Assembly (NCBI GenBank): GCA_944388995.1
Contig: CALXKN010000008.1
Location: 17,160 to 81,159 of the forward strand
Length of the DNA: 64,000 nt
Source of the DNA: an uncultured Spirochaetota bacterium
GTDB taxonomy: Bacteria; Spirochaetota; Spirochaetia; JAFGXN01
Direction of reading: 5' to 3'
The notes under the pieces were generated by a model. That model was not told the origin of the DNA. It worked only from the letters and a program-made list of their open reading frames with translations, and made no database searches. The translations under genes and the position numbers were made by a program. This document shows positions 6,332-64,000 of this stretch, piece after piece; position 1 is the first letter of the stretch, and each line of letters starts with the position of its first letter.

Positions 6332-6355
6332 TCTCCGGCGCGGTGAAAGAAAGGG

Positions 6356-6384
6356 TTGAAAAAACGAATTTTTCCGTCTATAAT
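6356..6384 (+). promoter_or_regulatory. Consensus sigma70-type promoter (TTGAAA-17 bp-TATAAT) abutting the nif3 start codon
   Basis: -35 TTGAAA at 6356-6361, 17-bp spacer, -10 TATAAT at 6379-6384. The ATG is at 6390, only 5 nt after the -10, implying a leaderless mRNA. Confidence 0.5.
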
Positions 6385-37646: not shown

Positions 37647-39029
37647 TCAACAGTTTTTCAGACTGTTTTGAATTTCATTGATGTCGGATTTTAAAATGGA
37701 GTCAAACTGAATGCGGTTCGAAATTTTATTTTTTGAATTAATGACTGTTGAGTGATCCTGTCCGAAATACTCTCCGATTTCGGTTGTGGTCAGTTCCGTC
37801 ATTTGAGTTGCGATGTAAACGGCGGCTTGTCTGTGTATGATAATATTTTTTTTTCTGCTTTTTGATTTTATATCGGCGGTCGGAATATTGTAAAAGTCGG
37901 CAACTTTTTTGACAATCAAATCCATGGAAATTTTTGTATTGTTCTGAACTTTGGACATATTTTTATTCTCTTTGATATACTCTTTTGCATCTTCCAAAGT
38001 TCCCGTATCCGAATTAAAATCGATAAAGAAGAGAAAGGATTTTAAAATTCCTTCCAAATCACGGACGTTTCCGAAAATATTTTCCGAAAGATAAAAGTAG
38101 ACCTCCTCTTCCAGTTTTAAATTTTTATGATTGAAGATATTCTCTTTTTTCAGCTGTTCGGTTTTCTGCTTTAAAATTTTGAATTTAACGTCTGCCGTCG
38201 GTTCGGAAATATCAACCGTAATTCCGCTTTTAATCCGCGAAGCCAGTCTGTCGGTAAAATTCGGAAGTTCCGAAATCGGTCTGTCGCAGGTAAAACAAAT
38301 CTGTTTTCCGTTATCTTTCAGTTTATTGAAAAGAATAAAAAGTTCATGCTGAAGACCGTCTTTGCCTTTAAAAAGATGAATGTCGTCAATTAAAAAAGCG
38401 TCGGCATTTTCGAATAAAGAAAAACTTGTGTTGTTTTTTTTATCCATTTTGGATTTTACATTGTCGTAAAGGGCGTCAATTAAATCCTGGGAACTGATAC
38501 AGATGACATTCATTTCCGGATTTTCTTTGAGAATACGGTGGGCAATGGCCTGCATTAAATGGGTTTTTCCCATTCCGACCTGACCTAAAATCAAAAGCGG
38601 GTTACAGGCTTCCGATCCGATGTGTGACGCTGCCAGCAAAGCGATTTTTTTTGCGTGGCTGTTGTTCTGTCCTTCGATAAAAGTTTCGAATGTGTACAGC
38701 GGATTCAATTTACAGAATCTGTTTTCCTTGTTTTGTTTTTCCGGTGTTTCCGACGGGGATTCTTTTTTTGACGGATTCGCTACCGCAACCGGTTCTTCGC
38801 TGATGACGTAGTTTAAGGAAATTTCGTCGTCAAAACTGATGTTCAGATAGTTTTCGATATCGGACTGATAATTTTTTTTGATTTTTGATTCGATGAAAGA
38901 AGGACAGGTGATTGTCAGTGTTTTTCCGTTCAGAGAAAACGAAACATAGTCGAAAAAAGGAGTAAAATTTTTCTTTTTAATCTTTTTCAGATAATCAACC
39001 AAGTCTTCTTTCAACTCATCGTTATTCAT
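37647..39029 (-). CDS. dnaA: Chromosomal replication initiator DnaA
   Basis: AAA+ Walker A GQVGMGKTHL and a C-terminal DnaA-box-binding HTH. Confidence 0.95.
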   Translation of the reverse strand: MNNDELKEDLVDYLKKIKKKNFTPFFDYVSFSLNGKTLTITCPSFIESKIKKNYQSDIENYLNISFDDEISLNYVISEEPVAVANPSKKESPSETPEKQNKENRFCKLNPLYTFETFIEGQNNSHAKKIALLAASHIGSEACNPLLILGQVGMGKTHLMQAIAHRILKENPEMNVICISSQDLIDALYDNVKSKMDKKNNTSFSLFENADAFLIDDIHLFKGKDGLQHELFILFNKLKDNGKQICFTCDRPISELPNFTDRLASRIKSGITVDISEPTADVKFKILKQKTEQLKKENIFNHKNLKLEEEVYFYLSENIFGNVRDLEGILKSFLFFIDFNSDTGTLEDAKEYIKENKNMSKVQNNTKISMDLIVKKVADFYNIPTADIKSKSRKKNIIIHRQAAVYIATQMTELTTTEIGEYFGQDHSTVINSKNKISNRIQFDSILKSDINEIQNSLKNC

Positions 39030-39123
39030 AAATATCCCCTCACCATCATAACACAGGATTTGAAAAAGTCCAAGGAAAAAAAGCGAATGTTTACTTTTTA
39101 TCGGAAAAAATGTATAATGACCT

Positions 39124-41058: not shown

Positions 41059-41067
41059 GAGTCGGCC

Positions 41068-43518: not shown

Positions 43519-43542
43519 TCCGCAGAACGACATCAGCACCCC

Positions 43543-43582
43543 GAAGCCGAATGGCTTCGGGGTGCTTGTTTTATTATAAAGA
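43543..43582 (+). terminator. Rho-independent terminator after gyrA
   Basis: Hairpin gcaccccgaagcc-gaat-ggcttcggggtgc followed by ttgtttt. Confidence 0.8.
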
Positions 43583-43590
43583 CAGTACCG

Positions 43591-43614
43591 TCAATGTTCC
43601 ACGTGGAACATTGA
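43591..43614. promoter_or_regulatory. parS-like centromere site 1 (perfect 24-bp palindrome)
   Basis: tcaaTGTTCCACGTGGAACAttga. The core TGTTCCACGTGGAACA differs from consensus parS TGTTTCACGTGAAACA at one symmetric position. Confidence 0.6.
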
Positions 43615-43641
43615 GAGCTTCTTCACGGCTTTATCGATTTT

Positions 43642-43665
43642 TGAATGTTCCACGTGGAACATTGA
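43642..43665. promoter_or_regulatory. parS-like centromere site 2
   Basis: Second copy of aaTGTTCCACGTGGAACAtt, 51 bp from site 1, about 1.7 kb upstream of parAB. Confidence 0.6.
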
Positions 43666-43696
43666 CATGGATTTTTATCCGTGTTAATTATACGGT

Positions 43697-44992
43697 ATGA
43701 AACGGTGTGTTTTTCTATTTTTAACGGTTTTTACGGCGTTCGGTTCGTTTGCTGAACAAAATGGAATTCGGATTGAAATTGACGGATCCGGGGAAAAGAC
43801 CGTTGCTGTTAAAGAATCTGAAGTTGCGGGAACCTCTGCTTTTGTTTTTTCTTTTAAAAAACAAGTCGGGTTATTTGCCGATAAAGTTACCGTTGAAGAT
43901 GCAGTGAAGGGGTTTAAATTTTATTCCGAGATTCGGGAAAAGGCAAATTTATACCGCAAAGAAGAAGAAAAAATTCGCAGCGATATTCTTGAAAAAGAAA
44001 AACATTTCAAAAAGGAAGCTGATCGCTTATATGATATTTACAACAGAAAACTCGAACCTCTTGTCCGAGCATTGACCGTTTTAGAAAAAAGCCGCTCTTC
44101 CGGCGGAGAAGTCGATGTAAATTCGGTTAAACAAAAGATTATTGAGCTGGAAACGGCACGCGATGAGGAAATTGCCGGCGAGAGAAAAAAATATTTTCCC
44201 GACGGATTGCAAACGAATATTGAAGTGACGATTGAAGAAACGGTTGAGGAAAAAATTATCGAAGAGTTCCGGCTGAACCGTTCTTCGTTTTCGGGGACAC
44301 AGATGTCACTTTCCGATGTAAAGAATTCCGTTTCTCTTCAAAATGCTGTACTTTCTTTTGTTCCGGTGAAAAATCTTAAATTGATTTATGAAGACGAAAA
44401 GACGGAAACATCATCAACAGTTTTAAAAAACGCAGCGCCGGACTTTCAAGCCGTAGGATTGCGTTTAAATTTTCCGAATACAGAAAAAACGTTTCGTTTT
44501 GACTGTGAAGAATTTCTTCGTTTGCTTTCGTCTTTTTTTGATTCACAAAACACGGCGCCGGTCGAAGTTCCGAAAACGGCGGCGGCTCAACAGGTCGGTT
44601 ATGTACTGAAAGCAAGGCGCTGCCTTCCCGAGGAATTTGGTTTAAGAAAAACACGACGCATCAGCAAAGAGTTGTTTGTTCCTGTTTCATTTGAAACCAA
44701 AACAGCGAACATTTCCGTTTCAGCGGCTGAGGTCGGCGGAAAGCGTTTTGTGTTTGTTCTTCCCGAAAAACAGGAAGGGAGTTTGGCTGAACATGTTTGC
44801 CTGATTTTTGAAGAAGCCGAAGTTGTCCGTTTGATACGGCTGATTGAAGAAAAACAAAAGTCTGTCGGTACGGTTTCCGTTGATTGGGATTTTCTTTCGT
44901 TCGATTCTGATTTGAAGACGGAAGTCGAAATAACGGATAACGGAGCGATTTTTCCCGAAGAAAAAATGAAGCAGCTGTTTCGGATAAAGTAA
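43697..44992 (+). CDS. Secreted hypothetical protein (431 aa), charged and coiled-coil rich
   Basis: Signal peptide MKRCVFLFLTVFTAFGSFA. No enzymatic motif. Confidence 0.5.
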   Translation: MKRCVFLFLTVFTAFGSFAEQNGIRIEIDGSGEKTVAVKESEVAGTSAFVFSFKKQVGLFADKVTVEDAVKGFKFYSEIREKANLYRKEEEKIRSDILEKEKHFKKEADRLYDIYNRKLEPLVRALTVLEKSRSSGGEVDVNSVKQKIIELETARDEEIAGERKKYFPDGLQTNIEVTIEETVEEKIIEEFRLNRSSFSGTQMSLSDVKNSVSLQNAVLSFVPVKNLKLIYEDEKTETSSTVLKNAAPDFQAVGLRLNFPNTEKTFRFDCEEFLRLLSSFFDSQNTAPVEVPKTAAAQQVGYVLKARRCLPEEFGLRKTRRISKELFVPVSFETKTANISVSAAEVGGKRFVFVLPEKQEGSLAEHVCLIFEEAEVVRLIRLIEEKQKSVGTVSVDWDFLSFDSDLKTEVEITDNGAIFPEEKMKQLFRIK

Positions 44993-45038
44993 ATTTACAA
45001 AAAAAGCGGGCCTTCGCCCGCCTGTCGTTAAATCCGAA

Positions 45039-45257
45039 TTAAACCGATTCGACGCCTTCCAGTTCAGGAATATTGTCTTTTAAGTATTTTTCGATACCGT
45101 TTTTCAGAGTCATTTGAGCCATCGGACAGCCGTGACAGCTGCCTTTCAGTTTTACATAAGCGATGTTTCCTTCCATTTTAACAAATTCTACATCGCCGCC
45201 GTCGGCTTGAAGGGAAGGGCGGACATGCTCGATATATTGTTTGACTTGTTCTTCCAT
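45039..45257 (-). CDS. NifU-like (Nfu) Fe-S cluster scaffold domain protein
   Basis: 72 aa with the CxxC motif GSCHGCP. Confidence 0.75.
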   Translation of the reverse strand: MEEQVKQYIEHVRPSLQADGGDVEFVKMEGNIAYVKLKGSCHGCPMAQMTLKNGIEKYLKDNIPELEGVESV

Positions 45258-45369
45258 AAAAATCTCCTTATTTGCAGTTTAACACTTTTTTTGTGCGGAG
45301 ACAAGAAATTTCGATTTTTTTTTGTTTTTATTGAAGAAAAAATCCTTTTTGACTATTATTATTTATAGT

Positions 45370-46131
45370 ATGAAAACAAAAATTACGGCATTTGTCAATC
45401 AAAAGGGCGGCGTCGGAAAAACGACGACAACAGTAAATCTCGGTGCGTATTTAGCCGACGCGGGGAAAAAAGTTCTTTTAATCGATTTTGATCCACAAGG
45501 AAATCTTTCTTCAAATGTCGGTATTGCCGACGTTGAGAAGGGTATTTACGAATTGCTGGCAGGGCAGGCCGATGCAAATGAATGTGTTTATGAAACGCCT
45601 GTTGACAATCTTTTTGTTTGTCCGACCGATATCAATTTGGCGGGAGGAGCTGTCGAATTGATTTCGGTTGATGATCGGGAATTTGTTTTAAAAGAAGCGA
45701 TGGATGAATGGCGCGGCGTTTACGATTATATTTTTATTGACTGTCCGCCCGCATTGGGAGTACTGACTATTAACGCGTTGACGGCAGCCGATGAGGTGAT
45801 TGTTCCGCTTCAATGTGAATATTTTGCGTTGGAAGGTTTGTCACAGTTATTGGATACGATTGAAATGGTGCGGAATACCACTAACCCGAAATTAACATTT
45901 CCTCGTATACTGTTTACAATGTACGATTCAAGAACCCTTCTTTCCCGCGACGTTGTGGATAATTTGAATCAAAACTATCCGGATCGGCTTTTTAAAACCA
46001 TCATTCCTCGGAATGTCAAGTTGGCAGAAGCGCCGTCTCATGGCGTTCCGATTAATTTATACGACAGTTTATGTCTTGGAGCAAAGAGTTACGAAAATTT
46101 GGCAAAGGAGTATATGAACGATGGCAAATGA
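45370..46131 (+). CDS. parA: Chromosome partitioning ATPase ParA/Soj
   Basis: Deviant Walker A KGGVGKTT. Start set at MKTKITAFVNQKGGVGKTT. Confidence 0.9.
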   Translation: MKTKITAFVNQKGGVGKTTTTVNLGAYLADAGKKVLLIDFDPQGNLSSNVGIADVEKGIYELLAGQADANECVYETPVDNLFVCPTDINLAGGAVELISVDDREFVLKEAMDEWRGVYDYIFIDCPPALGVLTINALTAADEVIVPLQCEYFALEGLSQLLDTIEMVRNTTNPKLTFPRILFTMYDSRTLLSRDVVDNLNQNYPDRLFKTIIPRNVKLAEAPSHGVPINLYDSLCLGAKSYENLAKEYMNDGK

Positions 46132-47029
46132 AAATCGTCCTGCAAGAATGAAACGATCGGGATTAGGAAAAGGGATCGAAAATCTGAAACCGAAGGCAGC
46201 GGCTCCTTCCGTAAAAAAGTGGGAAGAAGAGGCGGCCCAAAACGGCGGTATTCGCGAAATTGCGCTCGATGATATTTTTGCCTATACCGATCAGCCGAGA
46301 AAATATTTTGATGAAGAGTCTTTAAACGAACTGGCCGATTCGATTCGGCAAGTCGGCGTTCTGCAGCCGATTTTGGTTATCAGTCGCGAGTCGCGGTATA
46401 TGATTGTTTCCGGAGAACGGCGTTACCGCGCCGCGGTCAAAGCCGGCTTGAAAACCATTCCGGCAGTGGAAATGTCGTTGACTGACGAAAAAGCGGATGA
46501 AATTGCGGTTATTGAAAATATTCAGCGTGAAGATTTAACTCCACTGGAAGAAGCGCGCGCTTATCAGGCGTTAATGCGCCGTTACGGTTATACGCAGGAG
46601 CAGGTTGCCGAAAAAGTCGGAAAAAAGCGTTCGACAATCACCAATGCCGTCCGTTTACTGAAATTACCTGAAGACATTTTAACCGGATTGGAAGAAAATA
46701 AAATTACAGCGGGACATGCACGGAGTTTGGCCGGGTTAAAAAAAGAATCGGAAATGCGGAAGTTTTATCAGATGATTATCTCAAAAGGTTTAAGCGTCCG
46801 CGATATTGAAAAACTTCTGGCAAAAGACGAAAAAAAGGCGGAACCGACAGCGGCCGCCGGAAAACCGTCCAAATCGGAGGATATTCTCGCCGTTGAATCG
46901 CAGTTGATGGAACGGCTGGGAACTCACGTTCTTATCAACGGAACGGAAAAACGGGGAAAAATTGTCATTGATTATTATTCGCTCGATGATTTAAATCGAT
47001 TGATCGAACTGTTGGGAGGCGGTTTTTAA
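46121..47029 (+). CDS. parB: Chromosome partitioning protein ParB/Spo0J
   Basis: ParB box (GERRYRAA) and HTH (QEQVAEKVGKKRSTITNAVRLLKLP). Overlaps parA. Confidence 0.9.
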   Translation: MANENRPARMKRSGLGKGIENLKPKAAAPSVKKWEEEAAQNGGIREIALDDIFAYTDQPRKYFDEESLNELADSIRQVGVLQPILVISRESRYMIVSGERRYRAAVKAGLKTIPAVEMSLTDEKADEIAVIENIQREDLTPLEEARAYQALMRRYGYTQEQVAEKVGKKRSTITNAVRLLKLPEDILTGLEENKITAGHARSLAGLKKESEMRKFYQMIISKGLSVRDIEKLLAKDEKKAEPTAAAGKPSKSEDILAVESQLMERLGTHVLINGTEKRGKIVIDYYSLDDLNRLIELLGGGF

Positions 47030-53403: not shown

Positions 53404-55218
53404 CTATTCTTTTTTTTCGAAAACGTATCTGATGTCAAAACTGTCGAGAGCATCAAATGTCACATTTTCCCATTTATTGCGAACGGCCAAAAACGCATAC
53501 GGCCGCACCAGATAAACCAGCGGCACCTCTTCCCAAATGATTGACTGGTAACGGTCCCACAACGCTTTCGCCTTTTCGGCATCCGCGGTGTAGGAGGCTT
53601 CCGTATACAGACGGTCGATTTCGGCTTCCCATTCGGTTGCCGGCGTTTTCTGATTTGGATACCACATATGGAGGTTGCCGCCGCTCGGCCACACGTTGAC
53701 GCCCTGGCTCGGAAACAGGTTGCTGCCGGAAAGCGCAATCGACAACGACTGCCAATCGAACGAGTAGAGGAGGGAGTCTACCATTTTCGCAAAATCGACC
53801 GTGCGGATTTCCATCGCAATTCCCTGTTTTTTCAAATCATCGGCATAAATGTTGGCAATGTCCGACAGCTGCGGATTGTCAGCGGAAATCCAAAAGTCAA
53901 ACGCGACGGCGTTGCCCTCTTTATCGCGTAAAACGCCGGCAGAGTCCTTCTCCATTCCGATAGACGTCAACAGCGCGGCCGCTTTTTCCGGATTGTAAAA
54001 ATAGTTGAAAACAAGACTCTCCTCAAACACCGGCGAGGCTTCATGAAAAAAGTGGGTGACCGGTTTCGCTAAACCACGGTAAACATTGCGGATGATTTTT
54101 TCCCGATCCAGAAGGCAGCTCATTGCCTGCCGGAACTCTTTCTGTGAAAACCAATTATAATACTTGCGAGGCAGCGCACTGCGGTTAGGGTTTTGATTCC
54201 ACGTGATAAAAGCCGCTGTCGGAGCCGGACCGCCGTTAATCACCTCGTAACCGCCTTTTTCCTGTTCGGACAGCACGGAATCCAAATCGGCAGGCATCAC
54301 CGACAGCGTTTCCAGTTCGCCGTTTTTGAAAAGCAGCAGCTGCGTTGAAGGATTGGAAACGAACGAAAAACGCACCGTATCAAGGTAGGGCAGCCGCTGA
54401 CCGACGCTGTCTTCCAAAAAATAGTGCGGGTTGCGCCGCAGCTCCAAAACCAGTCCGGGCGTGTAACGGCTGATGTAAAACGGTCCGGCAGTCGGAACGG
54501 TGCTCGGATCGGTATTAATGGTAATAAAATCAATGACACGTTGAGAGCCGCCTTCCTTCTTTGCCGCCTCATAAAGAAACCGCGGCCCGATTTGCAGATT
54601 CGCCGCCAACAAAGGATCGGCGACAATTCGCGGAAAAGTCAGCCGAAACGACGAATCGGTCAGCTTCTCCGCGGTAATTTCGCCGCGGCTCCCGTCCGGC
54701 ATCGGCACAAACATCCCCGAATATTCAGCCATATTCAAAGCCGGATCTTTGATGATTTCCTCAATCCAAAAAACAGCGTCGTCGGCATTGAATGCGATTG
54801 TTTCGCCTGTCTTCGGCACAAACCAACACAAACCCGACTTAAATGTGAAATCAACCTCGGTGACCTGACGCTGCTCATCAACACGGACTTCAAAATCGGC
54901 AATGTGCCCCGACCATTTTTTTTCATAAACATCATATTCCAACAAATACGGACAAAGGTAACTCATCACAGCGCTCGTTGGTAAATCATTGATACGCGTC
55001 AAATTGAATGTCGACGGGTCCGACTCCATCGCCTCGTTCCAAACCCCACCGTAACGTCCGATTTTCCGCTCTCCGCCGCCCGGCCGAACCGTCATCTGCG
55101 ACAGAAAGCCGTTTTGGGCTTCCGCCCGCAAAGCCGCCGCCTCCTGCGTCGACACTTCCTTTTTCGGACCGCATGAAACTGCAGCCGCCGCCAAAACCGC
55201 CAAAAAAAAGCCCTTCAT
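53404..55218 (-). CDS. ABC transporter substrate-binding lipoprotein, family 5 (peptide/nickel, OppA-like)
   Basis: Lipobox AAVSCG. 604 aa with SBP_bac_5-like length and pattern. Confidence 0.75.
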   Translation of the reverse strand: MKGFFLAVLAAAAVSCGPKKEVSTQEAAALRAEAQNGFLSQMTVRPGGGERKIGRYGGVWNEAMESDPSTFNLTRINDLPTSAVMSYLCPYLLEYDVYEKKWSGHIADFEVRVDEQRQVTEVDFTFKSGLCWFVPKTGETIAFNADDAVFWIEEIIKDPALNMAEYSGMFVPMPDGSRGEITAEKLTDSSFRLTFPRIVADPLLAANLQIGPRFLYEAAKKEGGSQRVIDFITINTDPSTVPTAGPFYISRYTPGLVLELRRNPHYFLEDSVGQRLPYLDTVRFSFVSNPSTQLLLFKNGELETLSVMPADLDSVLSEQEKGGYEVINGGPAPTAAFITWNQNPNRSALPRKYYNWFSQKEFRQAMSCLLDREKIIRNVYRGLAKPVTHFFHEASPVFEESLVFNYFYNPEKAAALLTSIGMEKDSAGVLRDKEGNAVAFDFWISADNPQLSDIANIYADDLKKQGIAMEIRTVDFAKMVDSLLYSFDWQSLSIALSGSNLFPSQGVNVWPSGGNLHMWYPNQKTPATEWEAEIDRLYTEASYTADAEKAKALWDRYQSIIWEEVPLVYLVRPYAFLAVRNKWENVTFDALDSFDIRYVFEKKE

Positions 55219-55254
55219 GCCGCCATAGTAAAAGAAAGCCGCCGTCCTGTCAAC

Positions 55255-55421
55255 CTTTTCGTTTTTTGGGCGCGCGCCCCTGCGGGGCGCCGGGCTTTCC
55301 GCTGCAATTCGCAGCCTCCCTGCGCCTTCACCGCGGCAAAGCTGCCGCTTTGCCCTGCGCCTTCTCTCCGTCGGCAGCTCATTTCCGCTTCAATCCCTCG
55401 CGCCTTCGGCAAGGTGCTGCG
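55255..55421. repeat. GC-rich 166-bp direct repeat, copy 1
   Basis: Near-identical (1 indel) to 56426-56591. About 70% GC with internal hairpins (ggcaaagc-tgcc-gctttgcc; gggcgcgcgcccc…ggggcgcc). Confidence 0.9.
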
Positions 55422-55515
55422 GAAATCGGCATTTTATTGTTTTAGTGTAAAAATGGGAACTTCCGAAAACAGTCAACCGTTTTTCGGAAAAATAACTGCC
55501 CTAAACGTATTTTTG

Positions 55516-55524
55516 TGTTATAAT
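55516..55524 (+). promoter_or_regulatory. Extended -10 (TGtTATAAT) upstream of the MNT/HEPN pair
   Basis: tgtTATAAT at 55516-55524, about 90 nt before the MNT start. Confidence 0.4.
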
Positions 55525-55616
55525 AACTCCAATAAAAATTTCGTATGGCAAACACAGCAAAAGCAAAACCCGAAAAAAACGCCGATTAAAACCGGAGCGG
55601 AAGATTCGGGAGAAAC

Positions 55617-55922
55617 TTGGAGCGATCGGGTATGAGCTGTAATCTTCCTGAAAGCGTGGTTTTCGATATTGAACGATTCGCAAAGAAAAACAAGATTAAA
55701 AAGGTCGTTCTGTTTGGCTCCCGCGCGAGGGGCAATCATTCGGAACGAAGCGACATTGATTTGGCGGTCAGCGGTGGAAACGCGGCGGATTTTTATTACG
55801 ACGTCAATGAAGAAGCGCGGACTCTTTTAATTTTTGATGTGGTCAATCTGGACGGACCGGTCAGCGGCGAACTGCGCGCCGAAATAGAAAAGGACGGAGT
55901 TTTACTCTATGAAGAAATTTGA
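55617..55922 (+). CDS. Minimal nucleotidyltransferase (MNT) antitoxin-type protein
   Basis: GSRARG…SDIDL motif (Pol-beta NTase fold). Confidence 0.8.
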   Translation: MERSGMSCNLPESVVFDIERFAKKNKIKKVVLFGSRARGNHSERSDIDLAVSGGNAADFYYDVNEEARTLLIFDVVNLDGPVSGELRAEIEKDGVLLYEEI

Positions 55923-56304
55923 CAATTTTTGCAAAGCGCTTTCGAATTTGCGGGAAGGATTGCAGCTTGAAGAACCGTATTCTGTCGTCGAACGGACGGG
56001 CATCATCGGGCTGTTTGAAATTTGCTTTGAGCAGGCATGGAAGCTGATGAAAGCGGTTTTGGAAGAGCACGGCAGGACAATCGACCGCGTCGGTTCCCCG
56101 AAAGTTGTCATTCAGCTTGCATATCAGAGCGGGATGATTGACGACAGCGAAAAATGGCTTTCCCTGCTCAGAGATCGAAATATCCTTGCTCACACCTACA
56201 GCGACGAAGATTCGCTTGCCGTGATTCGAACGTTAAAGACGGACTACGAGCCCTTGTTCGCCACCCTCAAAGAAGAGATTGAAACGCGCCGGCTTTCGGC
56301 GTAA
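55909..56304 (+). CDS. HEPN-domain toxin-type protein (HI0074/nucleotidyltransferase-substrate-binding family)
   Basis: Rx4-6H motif (RDRNILAHTY). Overlaps the MNT gene by 14 nt. Confidence 0.75.
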   Translation: MKKFDNFCKALSNLREGLQLEEPYSVVERTGIIGLFEICFEQAWKLMKAVLEEHGRTIDRVGSPKVVIQLAYQSGMIDDSEKWLSLLRDRNILAHTYSDEDSLAVIRTLKTDYEPLFATLKEEIETRRLSA

Positions 56305-56425
56305 AGCGGAGGCGCGAAACAACTGAGTCCGGTATGAAAGTAGAAGAAATGGGAGCGAAAACTCTTTCAATCGCCACTGATTCTGCCAGCATCTTTACAT
56401 TTGGCTCCGCCCCCCCTCGCTGAAT

Positions 56426-56591
56426 CTTTTCGTTTTTTGGGCGCGCGCCCCTGCGGGGCGCCGGGCTTTCCGCTGCAATTCGCAGCCTCCCGCGCCTTCA
56501 CCGCGGCAAAGCTGCCGCTTTGCCCTGCGCCTTCTCTCCGTCGGCAGCTCATTTCCGCTTCAATCCCTCGCGCCTTCGGCAAGGTGCTGCG
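56426..56591. repeat. GC-rich 166-bp direct repeat, copy 2
   Basis: See copy 1. Preceded by a C7 tract (56410-56416). Confidence 0.9.
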
Positions 56592-56655
56592 AAAGAGGCG
56601 TCTGAAAACTATAAATATGAGAACAATCTCATTTAAACCTCATCCATTTTTATCT

Positions 56656-59541
56656 TCAGCAGAAATGCGCCATATCGCGCGGATAATACTTGCAGTCGTG
56701 CAGTTCCGTGTCGTCAAGCCCCAGCGCCTTTACCAGGGCAGCAGACGCTATGCACCAGTACCCGCGGTACTGGTTCTTTTTCAAGTCAAATTTTGTTATA
56801 AGCCCATCAGTCTTCGTGTGAATCCACTGTCTTTTAAGATACCGTTTTAACCGCTCAACAGCCGCCGCTTTATTCTCTTTTGAAAGCAGTACCACCTCAT
56901 ATACCGCATTGGAATATTTCGGACAGCAGAGCTTTTCCGTGCGTATCTGCCAGGATGAGTCCAGCGTCTGCATAAGGAAATCCAGATAAAAATCCCGCTG
57001 TTCCGATTTTTGTAACAATTTTCGATAGTCATCCAGAAATTCAGTCCTGTTAAAAAGCATAATCAAGTACAGAACAGTTTCCATATCTTCATAATTATCA
57101 TTGCCGTCCTGTGCGTCTATCAAATGACGCAAAATCAGGTCTACTTCGGGAAGCAGCTCATGCATATCTAGCCCTAAGGAATATCCTGTATAAAATTTGT
57201 AAAATGCATAAGTATATATTTGATATTTAAACGCTCTTATGTCCGATTCTGCCTGATGTTCATCAGTCTCAATATTATGATGATGATACGTTTGCAGTAT
57301 TTCTTTCAGCTTTTGGGAATCTTTCTTGAATCTTTCGTCAAAATATTCCTGGGGTTTGACTTTATCCCTCATCATTCTTACCCGGGGCGGAAGTTTTTCC
57401 CGCTCCTCCTCCGTAAGAAATTGCGACAGTTCAACTAAAAAGGGCTCTATAAACTCCGACATGAGTTTCGCTTTATTCCCGGCTGAGTGATCATAAGGTA
57501 TTTCAATTGCCGATGTCCGCCGTTTCTCATCCTTCCACAAGCGTCCTATTTTAATAAATGAACCGCCTTTCTCAAATATGTACAACGATATAATCAGTGT
57601 GCAGTCTTCATACTCACATTCTATATAATCTTGCTCCCCCAAGCAGTAATCTCTGTAGGTAAGATTCCTCAAAGTGGTTATTATCCAGGGTATCCACTCT
57701 TTTTTGATGACAACACTATCCCATGACTGCCATGACCCGGTACCGAAACGGCTGCCGGTTCTGGTGTTGATTCGTAGTTCGCCTTTGGGACTCCAGGGCG
57801 TGGGAAGTTTTTTCCGTTCTTCTTCAGGAAGAAATTGTGACAAGGCCACTAAGAAGGGTTCTATAAATTCCGACATGATTTTCAAGTCGTTGTCCGATTC
57901 TTCAAAATTAAATTCGAAACGGGTATAACGCCACTTTGATGTCAGGGTATAACTCTGCTCATTTTTTGCATGCCAAGGAAAATAAGGTATTTCAAGTGCC
58001 GGCGATATCTTCTTTTCATCCTTCCACATGGGAAATATTTTTATATAGGAATACCCATCCCCTATAGGACAGATACTTAATGTTAATTGGCACGTTCCCC
58101 ATTTATTTATGATGCTTTCAACTCCTGTTTGATAATTATCAACACTAAGATTTCTCAATGTGCTTATTATCCAGGGTATCCGGTTTTTTTGTATAACAAT
58201 ACTTTTCTGCTGCCCGCCGCCGAATGTACCGGTTCTTTTTCCGTTAATCCGTAATTCATCGTTATCTAATTCCTCGAAGCTGTATTCAAAATCGGCATTC
58301 AGAGTTTTTTTGCTTTGATATTTTGTTATCTTCTCTATTTTGGCTACTATCGATTCGTCGTCCGACTTATCGGTTTCGCCTGCATACCAATCTTTGCCTT
58401 CGAGCCATACCCCGAACCAGAAAGGAAGATCCCCCCAAGGTCTTTGACAGAGTTCTTTCTTTTCGTTGACACTCCAGGGGGGCGACAGTTTACCCCTTTC
58501 TTCTTCCGTGAGAAACTGCGACAATGCAACCAGAAACGGCTCTATAAATTCCGACATTAATTTTGTTTCTTTCCGGGATACATAGGGTATTTCAATATTC
58601 CATGAACTCTTATTTTCATTTTTCCAGACAGGATAAATTTTGATATAGGAATAATCAAAGGGTACTACATTTATAATAAAACTTAAATTACAGTAACCGT
58701 ATTCATATACGAGAGTTTGCGGGGTGTTATAATCGTCGATAGTGGCATTTCTTAGTGTGGTAATGATCAAAGGTATCCACGCTTTTTTTATGATAATACT
58801 TTCCCATTGTCCCCTGCCGAATGAATCTGTTCGCTTTGCATTGATTTCCAACTCGTCATCATTTAATTCTTCATTGTCAGCTTTTTCCTCAAAATAAAAT
58901 TCGAAATGAACATTCCCGCCCTTACTGATCAGGTATTCTTTTTCTGCCAGTCCGTATTGTGTTATACCGGTCATTGCTTTGAAAAAATTGAGGGAACCGC
59001 TTTCCTTATCGGCAAAAATGATGTTCTGTTTTTTGTTTTCCCTCCAGGGAGGCGGAAGTTGTGTTCTTTCTTCTTCGGTAAGGAATTGTGCCAATTCAAC
59101 CAAAACAGGTTCGATAAATTCCGCCATTAACCTGCTTTTATCCCAGGGTAGATATGGTATTTCAATAAACGGTGTCGTTTTTTCCTTCGGTTCCTTCCAT
59201 ATGGGCATTATTTGAAGGGTCGCATAATCTTTGGCAGATGGTAAAAACTCCAGATTGACTTGACATTCTTCATATTCGTGAACGATATGTCTGTTCCAAA
59301 TCCCTTCCGGAAAGTTGATGTCGTAATCCTCAAAAGGAAGGGTTCTCAGTGTGGTGATAATCCGGGAAATCCACGCTTTTTTTATGACGATACAGTAATA
59401 CAAAGGCATACGTTCCGCTTCATCCAACAATGGAAAGGTTATTTTTTCGAAAATCCGTATTTCGTCGTTGTCCGATTCCTCAAAATGAAATTCAAAGGTA
59501 TCGGATATTTCGGCATCTCCCCTTCTGCCTGTAATGAACAT
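56656..59541 (-). CDS. Novel 961-aa protein: four tandem ~180-aa repeats plus C-terminal ~210-aa domain (paralogue of the next gene)
   Basis: Repeat hallmarks FEFxFEESDNDELRI…KRTxxFGxGxWxSxxIKKxWIPxIITTLRN…YIKIxPxWKxE…IEIPY…SEFIEPFLVxLSQFLTEEERxKLPPPW occur four times. The C-terminus is about 65% identical to the 59781-60401 product. Confidence 0.7.
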   Translation of the reverse strand: MFITGRRGDAEISDTFEFHFEESDNDEIRIFEKITFPLLDEAERMPLYYCIVIKKAWISRIITTLRTLPFEDYDINFPEGIWNRHIVHEYEECQVNLEFLPSAKDYATLQIMPIWKEPKEKTTPFIEIPYLPWDKSRLMAEFIEPVLVELAQFLTEEERTQLPPPWRENKKQNIIFADKESGSLNFFKAMTGITQYGLAEKEYLISKGGNVHFEFYFEEKADNEELNDDELEINAKRTDSFGRGQWESIIIKKAWIPLIITTLRNATIDDYNTPQTLVYEYGYCNLSFIINVVPFDYSYIKIYPVWKNENKSSWNIEIPYVSRKETKLMSEFIEPFLVALSQFLTEEERGKLSPPWSVNEKKELCQRPWGDLPFWFGVWLEGKDWYAGETDKSDDESIVAKIEKITKYQSKKTLNADFEYSFEELDNDELRINGKRTGTFGGGQQKSIVIQKNRIPWIISTLRNLSVDNYQTGVESIINKWGTCQLTLSICPIGDGYSYIKIFPMWKDEKKISPALEIPYFPWHAKNEQSYTLTSKWRYTRFEFNFEESDNDLKIMSEFIEPFLVALSQFLPEEERKKLPTPWSPKGELRINTRTGSRFGTGSWQSWDSVVIKKEWIPWIITTLRNLTYRDYCLGEQDYIECEYEDCTLIISLYIFEKGGSFIKIGRLWKDEKRRTSAIEIPYDHSAGNKAKLMSEFIEPFLVELSQFLTEEEREKLPPRVRMMRDKVKPQEYFDERFKKDSQKLKEILQTYHHHNIETDEHQAESDIRAFKYQIYTYAFYKFYTGYSLGLDMHELLPEVDLILRHLIDAQDGNDNYEDMETVLYLIMLFNRTEFLDDYRKLLQKSEQRDFYLDFLMQTLDSSWQIRTEKLCCPKYSNAVYEVVLLSKENKAAAVERLKRYLKRQWIHTKTDGLITKFDLKKNQYRGYWCIASAALVKALGLDDTELHDCKYYPRDMAHFC

Positions 59542-59780
59542 TGCATCTACCAGTTTAAGAAAAGCTTTTGTATCAGCGGATTGGGCAGATTCTTCATGTT
59601 GATCGTCTTCTTTATTATATTTTATTCCGACTCCTAAGGAACGCAGCCGTCATATCGAAGGGGTGCAACGGTATGACGGCCAACACTCCGCTTTCACGCG
59701 GTGGTCTTATGCTGTTCATGTCGATACCGGACCGCTTCCGACACAACCGAATGAAGTTTTCCGATTTTCCGAATCAATTT

Positions 59781-60401
59781 CTAACAGAAATGGGTCATAT
59801 CGTAGGGATAGTATTTACAGTCTTTCAGTTCCGTATCGTCAAGTTTGAGGGCTTTTACCAAAGCGGCGGCGGCGATGCACCAATACCCCCGGTACCACCC
59901 TATTTTCAGATCCCGGTTGGTTATAACACCTTCGGTTAATGACATAAACCACTGCCTTTTAAGATACCTCTTTAACCGCTGGACGGCTTCCGCCTTGTTT
60001 TCTTTTGACAGCATTACCACCTCGTATACCGAATTGGTCTCTTTGGGGCAACGAAGTTTTTCCGTACTTATCTGCCATGTGGAGTCTACTATCTGTACAA
60101 GATAATCCAGGTAAAAATCCCGCATTTTCGATTTTTGTAATAACTCCTTATATTCATCCAGAAATTCTGTCCGGTTAAAAAGAATGATTAAGTATATAAT
60201 CATTTCCATATCATCATAACCTCTGTCCCTTTCTCTCGTTGTATCAATCAAATTTCTTATGATAAGGTCTACTTCGGGAAGCAGCTCATTCATACCAAGC
60301 CCCAGGGAATAGCCTGCATAAAATTTACAAGCTGCTTCCATATATATGTGATATTTAAACGACCATACATTATATTTTTCCGGATGGCTTATTCTCTTCA
60401 T
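59781..60401 (-). CDS. Stand-alone 206-aa paralogue of the C-terminal domain of the 961-aa protein
   Basis: YxGYSLGLxMxELLPEVDLIxRxLID…CKYYPxDMxHFC is shared with the 961-aa protein. Confidence 0.7.
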   Translation of the reverse strand: MKRISHPEKYNVWSFKYHIYMEAACKFYAGYSLGLGMNELLPEVDLIIRNLIDTTRERDRGYDDMEMIIYLIILFNRTEFLDEYKELLQKSKMRDFYLDYLVQIVDSTWQISTEKLRCPKETNSVYEVVMLSKENKAEAVQRLKRYLKRQWFMSLTEGVITNRDLKIGWYRGYWCIAAAALVKALKLDDTELKDCKYYPYDMTHFC

Positions 60402-60643
60402 ATTTACTCATCCGTTCAGCAAGATCAGACGCATCCTTATTATATCTTTCCCTAAAATATTCTTCTGTTTTTATGGTGTCTCTCATCTGTTATTCCTTGT
60501 GTATTTTGTAAATTTTTGGTTTATTCTCGTTATACATAACATTGCCATTTTCATCAAGTTGGTAATATGTTACTTTTCCTCCCTTCGGAACGCCTGCGGC
60601 GTGGCTACAATCCTTTGTGCGAGAAGATTTTTATCAATGGTGT

Positions 60644-60700
60644 CCGTACACACCCATTGATGTTGTCAAAGAACTCCTTCTGTACGGAGATAGGGGGAGG
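60644..60700. repeat. 57-bp exact repeat with 7-bp inverted repeat (CCGTACA…TGTACGG), copy 1
   Basis: Identical to 63943-64000. Starts 2 nt after the stop of the 75-aa gene. Confidence 0.9.
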
Positions 60701-60701
60701 G

Positions 60702-60929
60702 TTATTCAAAAGTTATTACCATATGCGAACCTGCCGTTTTTTCGGTTACTTTCTGTATAATCTCTTTTTTGTCATCTTCAGTTAATGGCTCGTTTTCTGG
60801 AACAAGCCAATTTTTCATTGAACTTTTATAACAGACAAAACCGCCTACTATCATTTCGCCTGCGATTCTCGCAGTTCTGCCATCGAGTTCTACATCTATG
60901 TATGTGTTTGTTCCGGTTATTTTTGTCAT
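60702..60929 (-). CDS. 75-aa hypothetical protein (partner of DUF600-like gene in duplicated module)
   Basis: MTKITGTNTYIDVELDGRTARIAGEMIVGGFVCYK…. A truncated second copy lies at 62300-62353. Confidence 0.5.
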   Translation of the reverse strand: MTKITGTNTYIDVELDGRTARIAGEMIVGGFVCYKSSMKNWLVPENEPLTEDDKKEIIQKVTEKTAGSHMVITFE

Positions 60930-60938
60930 ATATTAATC

Positions 60939-61271
60939 CTATGCATTATCCCATTCGTCTTGAAGAGCCTGATCCCATTCAAAGGTCATATCAAAGTGAC
61001 CGTTCTTTTCAAGGGTGTAAATAGCTTTGTTCCATTGTGCAAAATGTAACTCTTTTGCACTATTATGAAATTTTATTAAATCAATTTTTGTTTCTCGATT
61101 AAGTGCTAAGTTTAAAGCATTTTTCCATTCTCCATTAATCTGATATTTTGCATTCGTACCAATATATTTATCACTACATTCAATATTCAGTTCAATTTTA
61201 TCCCAAGAGGAATCAATACTATCATTCAATTGCGAACCAATATTTTTATATATATCTTCAATATTTTTCAT
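60939..61271 (-). CDS. DUF600 (YezG/EsaG)-like putative immunity protein, copy D
   Basis: N-terminus IEDIYKNI…SSWDKIEL and C-terminus WNKAIYTLEKNGHFDMTFEWD fit the DUF600 pattern (…EWEKVYLY…, W.NL.L..ER.G.F.IDYDY). AGGAG RBS overlaps the upstream nuclease-fragment stop. Confidence 0.5.
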   Translation of the reverse strand: MKNIEDIYKNIGSQLNDSIDSSWDKIELNIECSDKYIGTNAKYQINGEWKNALNLALNRETKIDLIKFHNSAKELHFAQWNKAIYTLEKNGHFDMTFEWDQALQDEWDNA

Positions 61272-61282
61272 AAATACTCCTA

Positions 61283-61657
61283 TTAATTTAAGAAGAACAA
61301 ATTTTCTGTTTTTTCTATTTTTCCATCCGATGTTTTTATAATGTATGTTACATCAAAATCTGTCGGTCTTAGATTATCAGCATAGTTTATTTTTATATCA
61401 ACTTCAACCTTTTTTCCCTCTGAAAGTGCATCGTTCCATTTTTTTTCCATGGTTTTCCATTCACCATTATTTAGTGTGGCGGTTTGTGGAACATAATTTA
61501 TTTGTTCTCCAGGACCATTGAAAATTCTTGCAATAATATGTCCGCCCTGGTCATCACCTTTAATACCATCTTTTATATCAACTGATTTTCCTTGTTGATA
61601 AACATTTCTGTCTTTTGTTTCAAGTTTTAATTCTCCGCTTACTTTGTTTTACAACTA
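61283..61657 (-). pseudogene. Orphan/pseudogenised nuclease toxin C-terminal domain (Serratia NucA-like bba-Me / Endonuclease_NS_2, EsaD/YeeF-type)
   Basis: Minus-strand frame encodes …GDDQGGHIIARIFNGPGEQINYVPQTATLNNGEWKTMEKKW… (compare Serratia DRGHQ…NITPQKSDLNQGAW). It has no start codon and in-frame TAG (61655-61657) and TAA (61649-61651). An upstream fragment (…DADYEDIVAALNRFGTIASKRK) in the same frame extends to 61731. Confidence 0.6.
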
Positions 61658-61731
61658 TTTTCTTTTACTTGCAATTGTTCCAAAACGATTAAGTGCAGCA
61701 ACAATATCTTCATAATCAGCATCTATTTCAT

Positions 61732-62262
61732 CTAACTGTCCCAGATTTCCTTAAATTTTAAACCTTTGATACTGTTTTTCTTAACAATATCTATAAACTC
61801 ATCTGTTACAAAATAATCTCGAATAATTAATTGATTTTGTAGTTTAACTTGAAAAAGAGGTGGATAATTGTTTTCCTTAAAATAATATTGCTCAACACCT
61901 AAAATATCATTCTCAAAATACTTATATTTAGTTTTTTTTCGATCTAAGCAGTCCAAAACAGTTAAATTATTTAATAGTACAAAATCGTCATTAAGCGGAA
62001 CAAATCTTATATTTATTTGAGAAATGTCAGAAAGTACTGCCATAAATTTTTTATTTATGAAGAATCCTCTACAATCATAACATTCACAAATATCCCCTGC
62101 AGGATTATTAGAATCTCTATCGTATTCTAATTGAAAATCAGAAGGAATGCTTATTTCTATACCTTTATTAAACTGACGTAAAATTTTTCTATCAGTTTCT
62201 TCGTTTTTTATATAGCATCCTTTGTAATTATCAATATCTGTTTCTAAAATGTATATTTTCAT
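61732..62262 (-). CDS. 176-aa hypothetical protein (AT-rich, possible immunity-type protein)
   Basis: ORF with a G8 tract serving as its RBS. No known motif. Confidence 0.45.
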   Translation of the reverse strand: MKIYILETDIDNYKGCYIKNEETDRKILRQFNKGIEISIPSDFQLEYDRDSNNPAGDICECYDCRGFFINKKFMAVLSDISQINIRFVPLNDDFVLLNNLTVLDCLDRKKTKYKYFENDILGVEQYYFKENNYPPLFQVKLQNQLIIRDYFVTDEFIDIVKKNSIKGLKFKEIWDS

Positions 62263-62299
62263 ATATCCCCCCCCTAATTGTGAATTTTTAAGAAACCAC

Positions 62300-62353
62300 T
62301 CAATAATTCCTTTCGGATTGTTTGTATGTGTTTGTTCCGGTTATTTTTGTCAT
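62300..62353 (-). pseudogene. Truncated remnant of 75-aa-family gene (MTKITGTNTY then divergent, stop after 17 codons)
   Basis: The first 10 codons and 5' flank are near-identical to the 60702-60929 gene, then homology breaks. Confidence 0.6.
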
Positions 62354-62362
62354 ATATTAATC

Positions 62363-62686
62363 CTATGCATTATCCCATTCGTCTTGGAGAGTTTGATCCC
62401 ATTCAAATGTCATATCAAAATGACCATTCCTTTCAAGAGAGTAAACAGCTTTGTTCCATTTATGCTCAGGCGACATAGATTCTTGAAGTTCAAAAACGCT
62501 ATCCATTAAAGTATTTACAGTTAATAAAGGAAACTTTAATTCTTTTTTTTCAAACGATGATAAAGTATATTCTGCCTGAAATGAACACATTTTATTTAGA
62601 CTTGATTCTATTTTTACAGTCACTTTTTCCCATTTACCGGAAATATTATCTTGAACCGCCTTGCCTAATTCTTTATATAAATCCAT
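62363..62686 (-). CDS. DUF600 (YezG/EsaG)-like putative immunity protein, copy B
   Basis: C-terminus WNKAVYSLERNGHFDMTFEWDQTLQDEWDNA is near-identical to copy D. Confidence 0.5.
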   Translation of the reverse strand: MDLYKELGKAVQDNISGKWEKVTVKIESSLNKMCSFQAEYTLSSFEKKELKFPLLTVNTLMDSVFELQESMSPEHKWNKAVYSLERNGHFDMTFEWDQTLQDEWDNA

Positions 62687-62732
62687 AGCATCTCCATTAA
62701 TTGTTGAATATTTTTTTGAATAGTTGGCTCAT

Positions 62733-63842
62733 TTATTTCTCTTTATTTAAAATAAACAGATACTCAGAGACGTGTATATTACGGTTATTCAAATTTCTGC
62801 TTCCCCGGAATGTATTATAAGTCATTTCAACGGTTTTCAGTTTTCCGTAGTGTTCCAGCATTGTTTTCATTTGCTCAAAAGTAATAAATCCTTCAGAATT
62901 ATAAGAGATAATGACAAACTTTGAATCAATTTTATCTATGATTTTTTCCATGGATTTTAAGGCTGAATAAGGTTTGTTGAATTCCGAGCGGTTCCAATCC
63001 TGAGTTATCCCTGAAACTTTACTGATTTCAGCATCCAGCCTGTTCTTTATGATAAGATTCAGCATAAAATAATTTGAACCATAGGGATGCTGGTTATACG
63101 GGGGATCCAGATAAGTAATATCTATTTTTTTTAATTCCCCGGCAAGTTCCACAGCATCTTTTTTATAGATTTTAACCTTTGAATTGAAATTGCTTAAAAC
63201 CGGCTCTTTCAGTTCTATTTTTCCAAAAATGCGGGTTAAAGCGTTTTTCCCGGCAGCGCCGAAACATCCGATTCCGGTATTTTTGTCCTTGTAAAACCCT
63301 TTGAAAACCCCGCTTGTATTGACATGAACCGAAGCCTCCGTTACGAGCGGCGCTAAAAAAAATTTTTTCATGTCTTCTTCCTGCACCACTTTATCAATCA
63401 GACTGCGGTAAGTGTCGATTAACAGAGCGTTCTCATGGGTATAAAAAACCCTTTCTCCTCTTTGAATATTTCCGTCATCCTGAGGGGCATAATTTTTTGT
63501 GATAATTCTCGGTTCTTTTTTGCTGCGGCACATTTCTTCTATTATTGATTTATATTCCCGCCATTTTTCATGCGGAAAATCTTTTTTGTCAGTCAGATAG
63601 CATTCATTGATGAGGCGGGAATATTCTTCCAGATCATTGGCAATTAAAACACTGCTGTATTTTTTCAGCATCCGGGCAACAATTCCCGAACCGGAGAAAA
63701 TATCCGCACAAACAAGTTTTTCTTTTCCCAATAAACCGGCAATTTTTTTGACTTCTTCTTCTATATTCCTGATAAGCTGCCGTTTGTTCCTGATATAAGT
63801 AATGATCTGTGCAGTAAGATATTCTTTATTTTCTTCTTTCAT
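62733..63842 (-). CDS. DNA N6-adenine methyltransferase, D12 class (Dam-like, alpha type)
   Basis: Motif I DIFSGSG and motif IV DPPY in alpha-class order. 369 aa. Confidence 0.7.
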   Translation of the reverse strand: MKEENKEYLTAQIITYIRNKRQLIRNIEEEVKKIAGLLGKEKLVCADIFSGSGIVARMLKKYSSVLIANDLEEYSRLINECYLTDKKDFPHEKWREYKSIIEEMCRSKKEPRIITKNYAPQDDGNIQRGERVFYTHENALLIDTYRSLIDKVVQEEDMKKFFLAPLVTEASVHVNTSGVFKGFYKDKNTGIGCFGAAGKNALTRIFGKIELKEPVLSNFNSKVKIYKKDAVELAGELKKIDITYLDPPYNQHPYGSNYFMLNLIIKNRLDAEISKVSGITQDWNRSEFNKPYSALKSMEKIIDKIDSKFVIISYNSEGFITFEQMKTMLEHYGKLKTVEMTYNTFRGSRNLNNRNIHVSEYLFILNKEK

Positions 63843-63942
63843 GGCTGTAAAGATTTATATTGTTCCAAATTTCCGGTTTATTCTATGCTTTTTGACAGAC
63901 CTTTATACTCAGTATCCCTCTCCGCAAAAATCAACCCGGATT

Positions 63943-64000
63943 TCCGTACACACCCATTGATGTTGTCAAAGAACTCCTTCTGTACGGAGATAGGGGGAGG
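63943..64000. repeat. 57-bp exact repeat, copy 2 (runs into window end)
   Basis: Identical to 60644-60700. Confidence 0.9.

Follow-up and report, generated by a model that had tools for sequence, protein, structure and literature searches.

Here we report that an exact 58-nucleotide (nt) repeat, found twice in 64,000 nt of DNA from an uncultured Spirochaetota bacterium (contig CALXKN010000008.1; the whole analysed stretch is called the window), is most likely a passenger. It would represent the 3´ flank of a recently duplicated or transferred module of the immunity gene Imm74, situated in a polyimmunity island of mosaic make-up. Three things are observed directly: the duplication, the mosaic of blocks and the variation in the end-points of the repeat. 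The two copies, at 60643-60700 and 63943-64000, form a direct repeat that is identical in every base. We call it the tail, and the features needed to follow the argument are these:

60702..60929, minus strand: Imm74 immunity gene copy A, 75 amino acids (aa), Pfam PF15603, E=1.3e-15.
60643..60700, minus strand: tail copy A, exact 58-nt repeat, non-coding, beginning 1 nt past the Imm74 stop codon.
60576..60642, minus strand: "long tail" continuation, a conserved 3´ flank present in copy A only and bringing it to 126 nt in all.
63943..64000, minus strand: tail copy B, the same 58 nt; its partner Imm74 gene lies just past the window end (7300-7527 of the related locus L001).

Of a 29-nt palindrome (60633-60661), the long tail continuation includes the right arm; it also includes the truncated start, about 45 nt (60578-60621), of a GC-rich structured repeat which we call GIR.

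Two matches to the 58-nt repeat were observed in the window, while none is expected (100 shuffles). The pair constitutes repeat family D12, with a copy spacing of 3300 nt. Both copies co-occur at this spacing in four independent metagenome assemblies (L002, L003, L004 and L007), therefore the repeat is not an assembly artefact. A preliminary description of this DNA had correctly recognized an exact repeat in two identical copies, but the length is 58 nt and the start, at 60643, is one base away from the one given there. The inverted arms, described as 7 base pairs (bp) around a 31-nt loop, measure 8 bp (TCCGTACA at 60643-50, TGTACGGA at 60681-88) and enclose a loop of 30 nt. Because the window contains 167 perfect 8-bp inverted repeats with loops of 3-40 nt, the stem of the 58-nt repeat is unremarkable. 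The right-hand limit of copy B at 64000 is the window edge only; the similarity runs on in L001.

What lies past the edge is informative. Over the last 2 kilobases (kb) of the window, L001 matches at all but 2 of 2000 nt, and it extends 7.5 kb further. In L001-L010, a 75-aa Imm74 gene stands directly before copy B; the possibility of another 75-aa paralogue past position 64000, raised in the preliminary description, is thereby borne out. Before this second Imm74 gene, L001 carries an Imm11-like gene, an AHH nuclease open reading frame (ORF) and a full ORF for Endonuclease_NS_2; next come transporter genes. When the methyltransferase encoded next to copy B was looked up by exact match, 18 contigs were returned.

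The duplicated unit consists of the Imm74 gene and the tail, about 290 nt, and is approximately 99% identical outside one divergent patch of 79 nt. Between gene copies A and B, 15 of 228 nt differ, 13 of them within nt 119-197 and 2 within nt 0-118. In the last 89 nt of the unit (gene end, stop codon and tail), there are 0 differences. Since the unit is about 99% identical outside the patch, the tail does not stand out in conservation from most of the adjacent coding sequence. Each of the two patch variants recurs in other genomes, which points to a probable mosaic origin, not to a special constraint on the tail. The exact conservation was originally taken as a sign of a dedicated functional site. 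This is not supported, the tail being a part of the roughly 290-nt duplication. The contrary case considered at that time, that the element would be confined to these two places and the second copy would merely belong to a larger duplication, is essentially what we see: there is an Imm74-plus-tail unit, and the tail occurs at these two places only in the source sequence available and elsewhere only attached to Imm74.

The distribution of the tail in other genomes leads in the same direction. We scanned one genome per species (185,579 species) with a pattern drawn solely from inside the tail, for which about 4 chance matches had been estimated beforehand. The scan yielded 6 loci. Four of them are spirochaete metagenome-assembled genomes (MAGs), each with a single copy that is always directly after Imm74. 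The other 2 have different loop lengths and unrelated flanks and are therefore chance matches, as expected from the prior estimate. One of the four MAGs was binned as Mucispirillum, yet it is nearly identical to another, and the label is probably due to misbinning. Two tail patterns gave 0 matches in JGI metagenomes (the relatives´ assemblies are ENA samples outside the JGI holdings), and 0 matches were found in viral contigs. As to which genes are followed, the copy census envisaged in the preliminary description gives Imm74 every time, in the window and in the four MAGs; for the source genome it extends over one contig´s worth of sequence. With two copies within the 64 kb and a single copy in each of four species representatives, invariably after Imm74, the tail is not distributed like a repetitive extragenic palindrome (REP) or a miniature inverted-repeat transposable element (MITE).

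When Imm74 homologues were traced into their contigs, the flank was found to end at various distances downstream of the gene: L018 retains 0 nt of it, L017 18 nt, copy B 59 nt, L015 62 nt and L012 85 nt; in copy A, L011, L016, L026 and L038-L040 it reaches 126 nt. In L042, the full flank of about 200 nt is present and the tail runs through into a full GIR. Distant Imm74 genes (69-77% aa identity: L019, L020 and L023) have no tail, and it is wholly absent after the Imm74 genes of L018, L019, L023 and L031. In L028-L030, an 87%-identical Imm74 is followed by a diverged tail homologue, which matches at 35 of 48 positions (0 of 2000 shuffles reach this score). Several independent metagenome assemblies break at or beside the Imm74-plus-tail unit, because repeats break (short-read) assemblies: L024 ends inside Imm74, L012 ends 27 nt before the tail and L009 starts at the tail. 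The tail was also considered as coding sequence and rejected. Its frame 2 reads PPPISVQKEFFDNINGCVRT..., and an ORF exists only in L015, by virtue of a deletion that fuses it to a fragment of an SH3-like gene.

The surroundings of the tail are a heterogeneous polyimmunity/orphan-toxin island in the sense of Zhang et al. 2012 (PMC3482391), who listed Imm74 in heterogeneous polyimmunity loci and Imm11 as paired with Tox-AHH nucleases. In addition to those already given, the island comprises the following features, from the window end inwards:

62733..63842, minus strand: D12-class N6-adenine DNA methyltransferase (PF02086, E=9e-18), first gene of the block abutting tail copy B.
62363..62686, minus strand: YezG-like immunity gene, 107 aa (PF04634, E=7.5e-5).
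62323..62353, minus strand: third Imm74, truncated to its first 31 nt (from repeat family D4, block limits and sequence reading).
61732..62262, minus strand: Imm11-like immunity gene, 176 aa (PF07791, E=5e-4, a weak match below the curated cut-off).
61283..61450, minus strand: C-terminal fragment of Endonuclease_NS_2, 55 aa, an orphan toxin remnant (PF13930, E=3.5e-6, profile 90-130 of 132).
60939..61271, minus strand: YezG-like immunity gene, 110 aa (PF04634, E=4.5e-4), directly upstream of Imm74 copy A.
59781..60486, minus strand: PoNi immunity gene downstream of tail copy A (PF08929, E=6e-20), in two ORFs.
56656..59541, minus strand: 961-aa protein with a C-terminal PoNi domain (Pfam, repeat families).
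56423..56594, minus strand: GIR copy E2, 98% identical to E1, together with which it brackets the MNT/HEPN pair.
55617..56304, plus strand: nucleotidyltransferase/HEPN pair (NTase_sub_bind, HepT-like; Pfam), between the two GIR copies.
55252..55424, minus strand: GIR copy E1, a member of the GC-rich structured repeat family that follows the tail in intact loci.

On the minus strand, the island covers the stretch between about 55.2 kb and a point about 2.3 kb past the window end, and from about 56.6 kb up to the window end every gene has this orientation. The GC content drops from about 45% to 33% across this stretch. Unrelated immunity families (Imm74, PoNi_C, YezG-like, Imm11) are united in one co-oriented array, with both YezG-like matches near the curated threshold and PoNi_C matches at E=6e-20 and 1e-17. 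Truncated or standalone C-terminal toxin cassettes, namely the Endonuclease_NS_2 fragment and AHH ORFs, adjoin the immunity genes; in L001, AHH and Endonuclease_NS_2 ORFs come just past the window end. The host appears to be a gut spirochaete.

The mosaic nature of the island became obvious from BLAST comparison of the reconstructed island with related loci. Every block is contiguous in some other spirochaete genome, with identities of 96.5-99.9%. The block made of the AHH 3´ part, Imm11, Imm74 and the tail is 99.9% identical over 1120 nt in L015. The methyltransferase, YezG and Imm74 start are contiguous in L018 (98.3% over 1623 nt). The AHH 3´ end with Imm11, a block that starts at window position 62326, is found in L016 (99.5% over 591 nt), where a 179-aa homologue of the Imm11-like ORF comes after a full AHH toxin ORF. 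Finally, YezG, Imm74 and the long tail are together in L026 (96.5%). The 3´ end of this YezG-like gene (60939..61271) is repeated at 62363-62460 as family D4.

The block limits are equally telling. The L018-type block starts with the last 3 nt of copy B, a GGA common to both (3-nt microhomology), and its far end overlaps the L016-type block by 4 nt, 62323-62326. At this 4-nt junction overlap, the 31-nt start of Imm74 is fused to the last 16 or so codons of an AHH toxin gene. In L012 an SH3-like gene is intact; in L015, the 3´ part of this gene has been joined to the flank following a deletion. Judged by their sequences, the junctions are scars of illegitimate recombination that lie at varied positions; they do not represent crossovers at a single site. 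Of the functions first envisaged for the repeat, a cassette boundary holds insofar as it sits where gene modules meet, but the downstream boundary varies between genomes and is not defined. The chimeric genes at 62323-62360 and at L001 6316-6744 are, on the same reading, products of illegitimate recombination. The latter is a 142-aa ORF with a YezG-like start (MADLYKELG...) followed by an AHH nuclease domain. The locus is a clear example of island assembly, with blocks shared across species at 96.5-99.9% and joined at 3-4-nt microhomologies.

We suggest the following course of events. The Imm74 gene would be copied together with the proximal part of its non-coding 3´ flank. In the fullest relatives, about 200 nt of non-coding sequence (tail, 29-nt palindrome, GIR) come after Imm74; in the window this flank is cut at 126 nt in copy A and at 59 nt in copy B. 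The 58-nt identity would then be the portion which both truncated copies retain, and the copies would lie 3.3 kb apart because two blocks of the island end in Imm74 plus tail. The exactness of the tail would reflect a recent duplication or transfer and not a site read by a protein or a folded RNA. Further, the two direct repeats of about 290 nt may serve as substrates for RecA-type homologous recombination, which would delete or duplicate the 3.3-kb block. A gene duplication can thus show itself, at a window edge, as nothing more than an exact short "motif" next to a small gene.

Several points speak against the passenger explanation and have to be weighed. Firstly, the 89-nt identical run is unlikely under evenly spread substitutions (P about 0.002). 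We attribute it, from the pattern of differences, to probable mosaicism, with selection on the tail as a possibility. Secondly, only one substitution (T/C) exists across all retrieved tail copies, which come from at least 4 GTDB species, and the 73%-identical homologue in L028 shows that the flank persists for some time. Thirdly, the last base of copy B is also the last base of the 8-bp inverted repeat; we explain this coincidence by the microhomology. Fourthly, the tail´s only likely activity would be a passive role in recombination, and no strain with the 3.3-kb interval deleted or duplicated was found in the contexts of the methyltransferase, PoNi and Imm74 proteins that were checked. Lastly, our view of the source genome amounts to one contig´s worth, and more copies may be present there.

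Of the alternatives, the one that deserves most attention concerns GIR. The tail might be the 5´ part of a larger functional non-coding unit (tail, 29-nt palindrome and GIR of about 130 nt) that marks module junctions and could act either as RNA or as a single-stranded DNA structure; the remnants in the window would probably be inactive. We regard this as unlikely, although it has some support. In L042, Imm74, the tail and the palindrome are directly followed by a full GIR of about 130 nt, and copy A retains the first 45 nt or so of GIR (partial match in L002, E=0.005). Further copies of the family are located as follows:

L019 4326-4448 and 5050-5172; L031 4172-4314 and 5593-5734; L042 4304-4430; L020: other GIR copies.
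L028 4277-4386, minus strand: GIR of L028-L030, inverted relative to Imm74.

GIR is about 110-175 nt long and its 5´ and 3´ ends pair (GCGCA/TGCGC). In 8 copies of 4 sequence types, 91.5% of cells in the alignment are paired, as opposed to 29-43% when partners are slid, and 9 pairs are changed on both sides, which 2 of 500 shuffles reach. The closing helices, formed by the 5´ end with the 3´ end, are preserved in every copy. In L019, L031 and the window, GIR sits between modules of one or two genes (toxin/immunity or toxin-antitoxin). The covariation nevertheless depends on four independent types and on an alignment fitted to the model, hence we treat the predicted structure as a lead and not as a result.

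There are also direct objections to such a unit. GIR is found without the tail in L031a, in L019 and at E1/E2, and the tail is also found without GIR; in L028, GIR is inverted relative to Imm74, and the tail itself has no conserved structure. GIR matches neither an Rfam family nor our attC model, and its covariance model detected no further copies in other loci. Because GIR and the tail each occur alone, GIR does not rescue a function for the 58-nt repeat. We give a slim chance to the more specific proposal that tail, palindrome and GIR together make up a hitherto undescribed element, structured and located at the junctions of spirochaete toxin/immunity arrays, with the repeat in the window as its truncated 5´ end. 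It might serve as a recombination substrate of a non-canonical type or as a structured RNA delimiting the modules; toxin/immunity arrays in some genomes do adjoin true integron cassettes. The repeat itself matters little. The part most worth pursuing is GIR, whose predicted structure is supported by covariation and which lies between toxin/immunity modules and in one genome stands beside attC cassettes.

Some minor observations on GIR should be mentioned. In L042, GIR is followed, by eye, by the 3´ end of a truncated ORF (a possible toxin remnant) just before the next gene. The 5´ motif of GIR, CAAAGGATTGTAGCC, and the attC motif CAAAGGTTCGTAGCC are alike in 13 of 15 positions, a weak lead, since the attC model does not score GIR. 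A scan of viral sequences with a two-block GIR pattern gave one locus (L048, 12 bits) inside an ORF, which we treat as chance.

The passenger explanation has further to be compared with the possibility that the tail works as RNA, as a cis-acting element in the 3´ untranslated region of the Imm74 transcript (a stabilising hairpin, a processing site or an unconventional terminator). We consider it very unlikely. The position is suggestive, as the tail begins 1 nt past the stop codon on the coding strand. It contains the 8-bp inverted repeat and, in copy A, an 11-bp palindrome, and it is nearly invariant among all retrieved copies. Folding, however, gave z = 0.00 for the tail alone and 0.04 with flanks, which is no better than shuffled sequence. 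The minimum-energy fold of copy A forms, in place of the 8-bp stem, the 29-nt palindrome (60633-60661), which shares bases of the 3´ arm of the 8-bp repeat. Copy B is without the right half of this palindrome, therefore the two copies cannot share one structure. The tail homologue in L028 contains no inverted repeat of at least 6 bp, and the Imm74 genes of L018, L019, L023 and L031 manage without any tail. A functional RNA element, as first suggested from the exact conservation, is not sustained, the stem being neither stable nor conserved.

Searches for known signals were similarly negative. Rfam 15 over 54000-64000 at E<=1 returned noise only; its match to Flavo-1 (21.6 bits, gathering score 42) falls on the GIR copies, not on the tail. 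In Rfam scans of four related loci nothing relevant appeared, and the mir-8186 matches in L034 correspond to a palindrome. A sigma-70 promoter and terminator scan showed no enrichment and no coding-strand consensus at the tail. The TTGACA in the tail has no -10 partner at 16-18 nt, and the one site of the terminator scan at the tail (60639-60654) is on the plus strand. An 8-bp stem with a 30-nt loop does not make an intrinsic terminator, and the palindrome of copy A is followed by AAAAAUCUUCU on the coding strand. On this point the preliminary description was right: there is no U-tract after either stem and no minus-strand terminator site at the tail, so the repeat is not a simple terminator.

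The remaining alternative is that the tail is an attC-like site of site-specific recombination, at which an integron-type or XerD-type recombinase would move cassettes. Some points favour the idea. Some Treponema species have chromosomal integrons with attC sites of 63-132 bp (PMC3607928), the genes here are short, co-oriented and of low GC, copy B stops at the last base of the inverted repeat, and in the related array L031 an Imm74 fragment and GIR copies are accompanied by true attC sites. For comparison we used L034, a gut-spirochaete integron and by its record name a Hadza gut metagenome contig, which was retrieved starting from a published IntI alignment. At L034 1-10867, an intI fragment is followed by at least 10 co-oriented cassettes, each with a 66-nt attC (YYTAAC...GTTAKR). 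The attC covariance model (R1), built from 7 of these gut-spirochaete sites and 4 attC sites of T. denticola, scores 64-79 bits on 10 L034 sites (E 1e-12 to 1e-16), 59 bits in L033 and 48 bits in L031.

The same model that finds every attC of L034 finds nothing in the window at default filters; with filters off, the best match over 54000-64000 has E=2.7. No complementary AAC/GTT boxes (R´´/R´, RYYYAAC...GTTRRRY) flank the stem on either strand of the 58-nt repeat or the 126-nt long tail. The element follows Imm74 only and not each gene, there is no attC-like site per cassette, and the end-points fall at 6 or more positions. At copy B, the junction consists of 3 nt of microhomology to a block that occurs independently. 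No Phage_integrase domain was detected by Pfam scans and in gene tables in the window at 39-55 kb (gyrB, gyrA, parA, parB, CorA and others), in the island, or in the 5 kb beyond it (LysE, ABC transporter, Na/Ala symporter), that is, within about 15 kb on one side and 5 kb on the other. A recombinase gene nearby, whose presence would have suited the original suggestion of a recombination site, is likewise missing from the window at 38-64 kb and from the 5 kb beyond. The tail fails every attC criterion tested and, given also its scattered end-points and the lack of crossovers at one site, it has next to no chance of being a recombination site.

The search for integrons produced some side results. 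Most of the L034 attC sites that were read precede a hairpin located just before GGAG, whose stem seems to covary by eye (GGACAsCC...GGsTGC), and a second repeat of about 150 nt (AGAAAGCAAGTCAAGCTTGCTTTCT...) recurs after several of the cassettes. The tail and the start of one L034 cassette have 10 nt in common, TACGGACACC, which we put down to chance; about 0.7 such matches are expected by rough estimate. The array at L031 3960-8048 (GCA_029098225.1) contains a disrupted Imm74, two GIR copies, an AHH fragment with immunity genes, and toxin-antitoxin pairs of PemK and BrnA type, together with true or degenerate attC sites at 6328-6375, 6915-6967 and 7850-7914. From this mixed array it follows that toxin/immunity modules and integron cassettes can be interleaved.

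A passenger flank in an immunity array has parallels among known systems. The closest analogues are tandem or orphan immunity arrays shaped by recombination (PMC9484751, PMC5361080, PMC3150448, PMC3967940). Polyimmunity and orphan arrays, including the orphans of contact-dependent inhibition (CDI) and Rhs systems (PMC3482391, PMC3150448, PMC3967940), resemble our island in co-oriented genes of low GC with unrelated immunity families, in interspersed C-terminal toxin fragments (here Endonuclease_NS_2 and AHH) and in chimeric ORFs. The island differs from them in its apparent gut-spirochaete host and in the DNA methyltransferase amid the immunity genes, and in the sequence seen neither a full-length delivery-competent toxin nor a secretion system was identified.

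The esaG/tsaI arrays of the type VII secretion system, where tandem paralogues of an immunity gene evolve by homologous recombination (PMC9484751), and the Vibrio cholerae type VI secretion system arrays with sequential displacement (PMC5361080) are alike in repeated immunity paralogues, near-identical stretches, mosaic divergence and leftover 3´ ends of effector genes. In these arrays, too, repeats are by-products of duplication or replacement and not dedicated sites. However, the paralogues in the window are 3.3 kb apart across unrelated modules instead of being strictly tandem, the junctions are microhomologies of 3-4 nt and not long homology, and recombination between the copies is a presumed process.

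Two other systems bear a more superficial likeness. Integron attC sites (PMC3607928) are also short inverted-repeat elements placed after the stop codon of a short gene in a co-oriented array, and the related spirochaete arrays L031 and L034 carry them. The tail differs in having no R´´/R´ boxes, no attC model match, no nearby integrase and no site per cassette, and in its variable boundaries. The rAID-1 clusters of Bacteroidales (bioRxiv 10.1101/471110) are orphan immunity arrays of skewed GC in gut bacteria, with repetitive intergenic sequences. They are defined by a XerD-like enzyme of the tyrosine recombinase class at the 5´ end, co-directional low-GC genes and a motif in every intergenic region (10.1101/471110). 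Our island has the co-directional low-GC genes, but there is no XerD-like recombinase at either end of the available sequence, the repeat occupies 2 of about 10 intergenic regions and is tied to one gene family, and the phylum is another.

A few observations concern the rest of the island and its neighbourhood. The PoNi gene at 59781..60486 is called as two overlapping ORFs, one of 38 aa (60370-60486) and one of 206 aa (59781-60401), and it is probably frameshifted or a pseudogene. By eye, the 38-aa ORF (MRDTIKTEEYF...) resembles the PoNi_N start of the 961-aa protein. The ORF of the latter has four internal repeats of about 590 nt (D1, D3, D8 and D10) ahead of PoNi_N/PoNi_C, and its C-terminal part shares 76-78% DNA identity with the neighbouring 206-aa PoNi gene; it may encode a poly-immunity protein. 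The cumulative GC skew has its minimum near 36 kb, adjoining gyrB (39124-41058), gyrA (41068-43518), parA (45322-46131) and parB (46121-47029). The window at about 36000-47000 is thus probably the chromosomal replication-origin region, with the island some 20 kb away.

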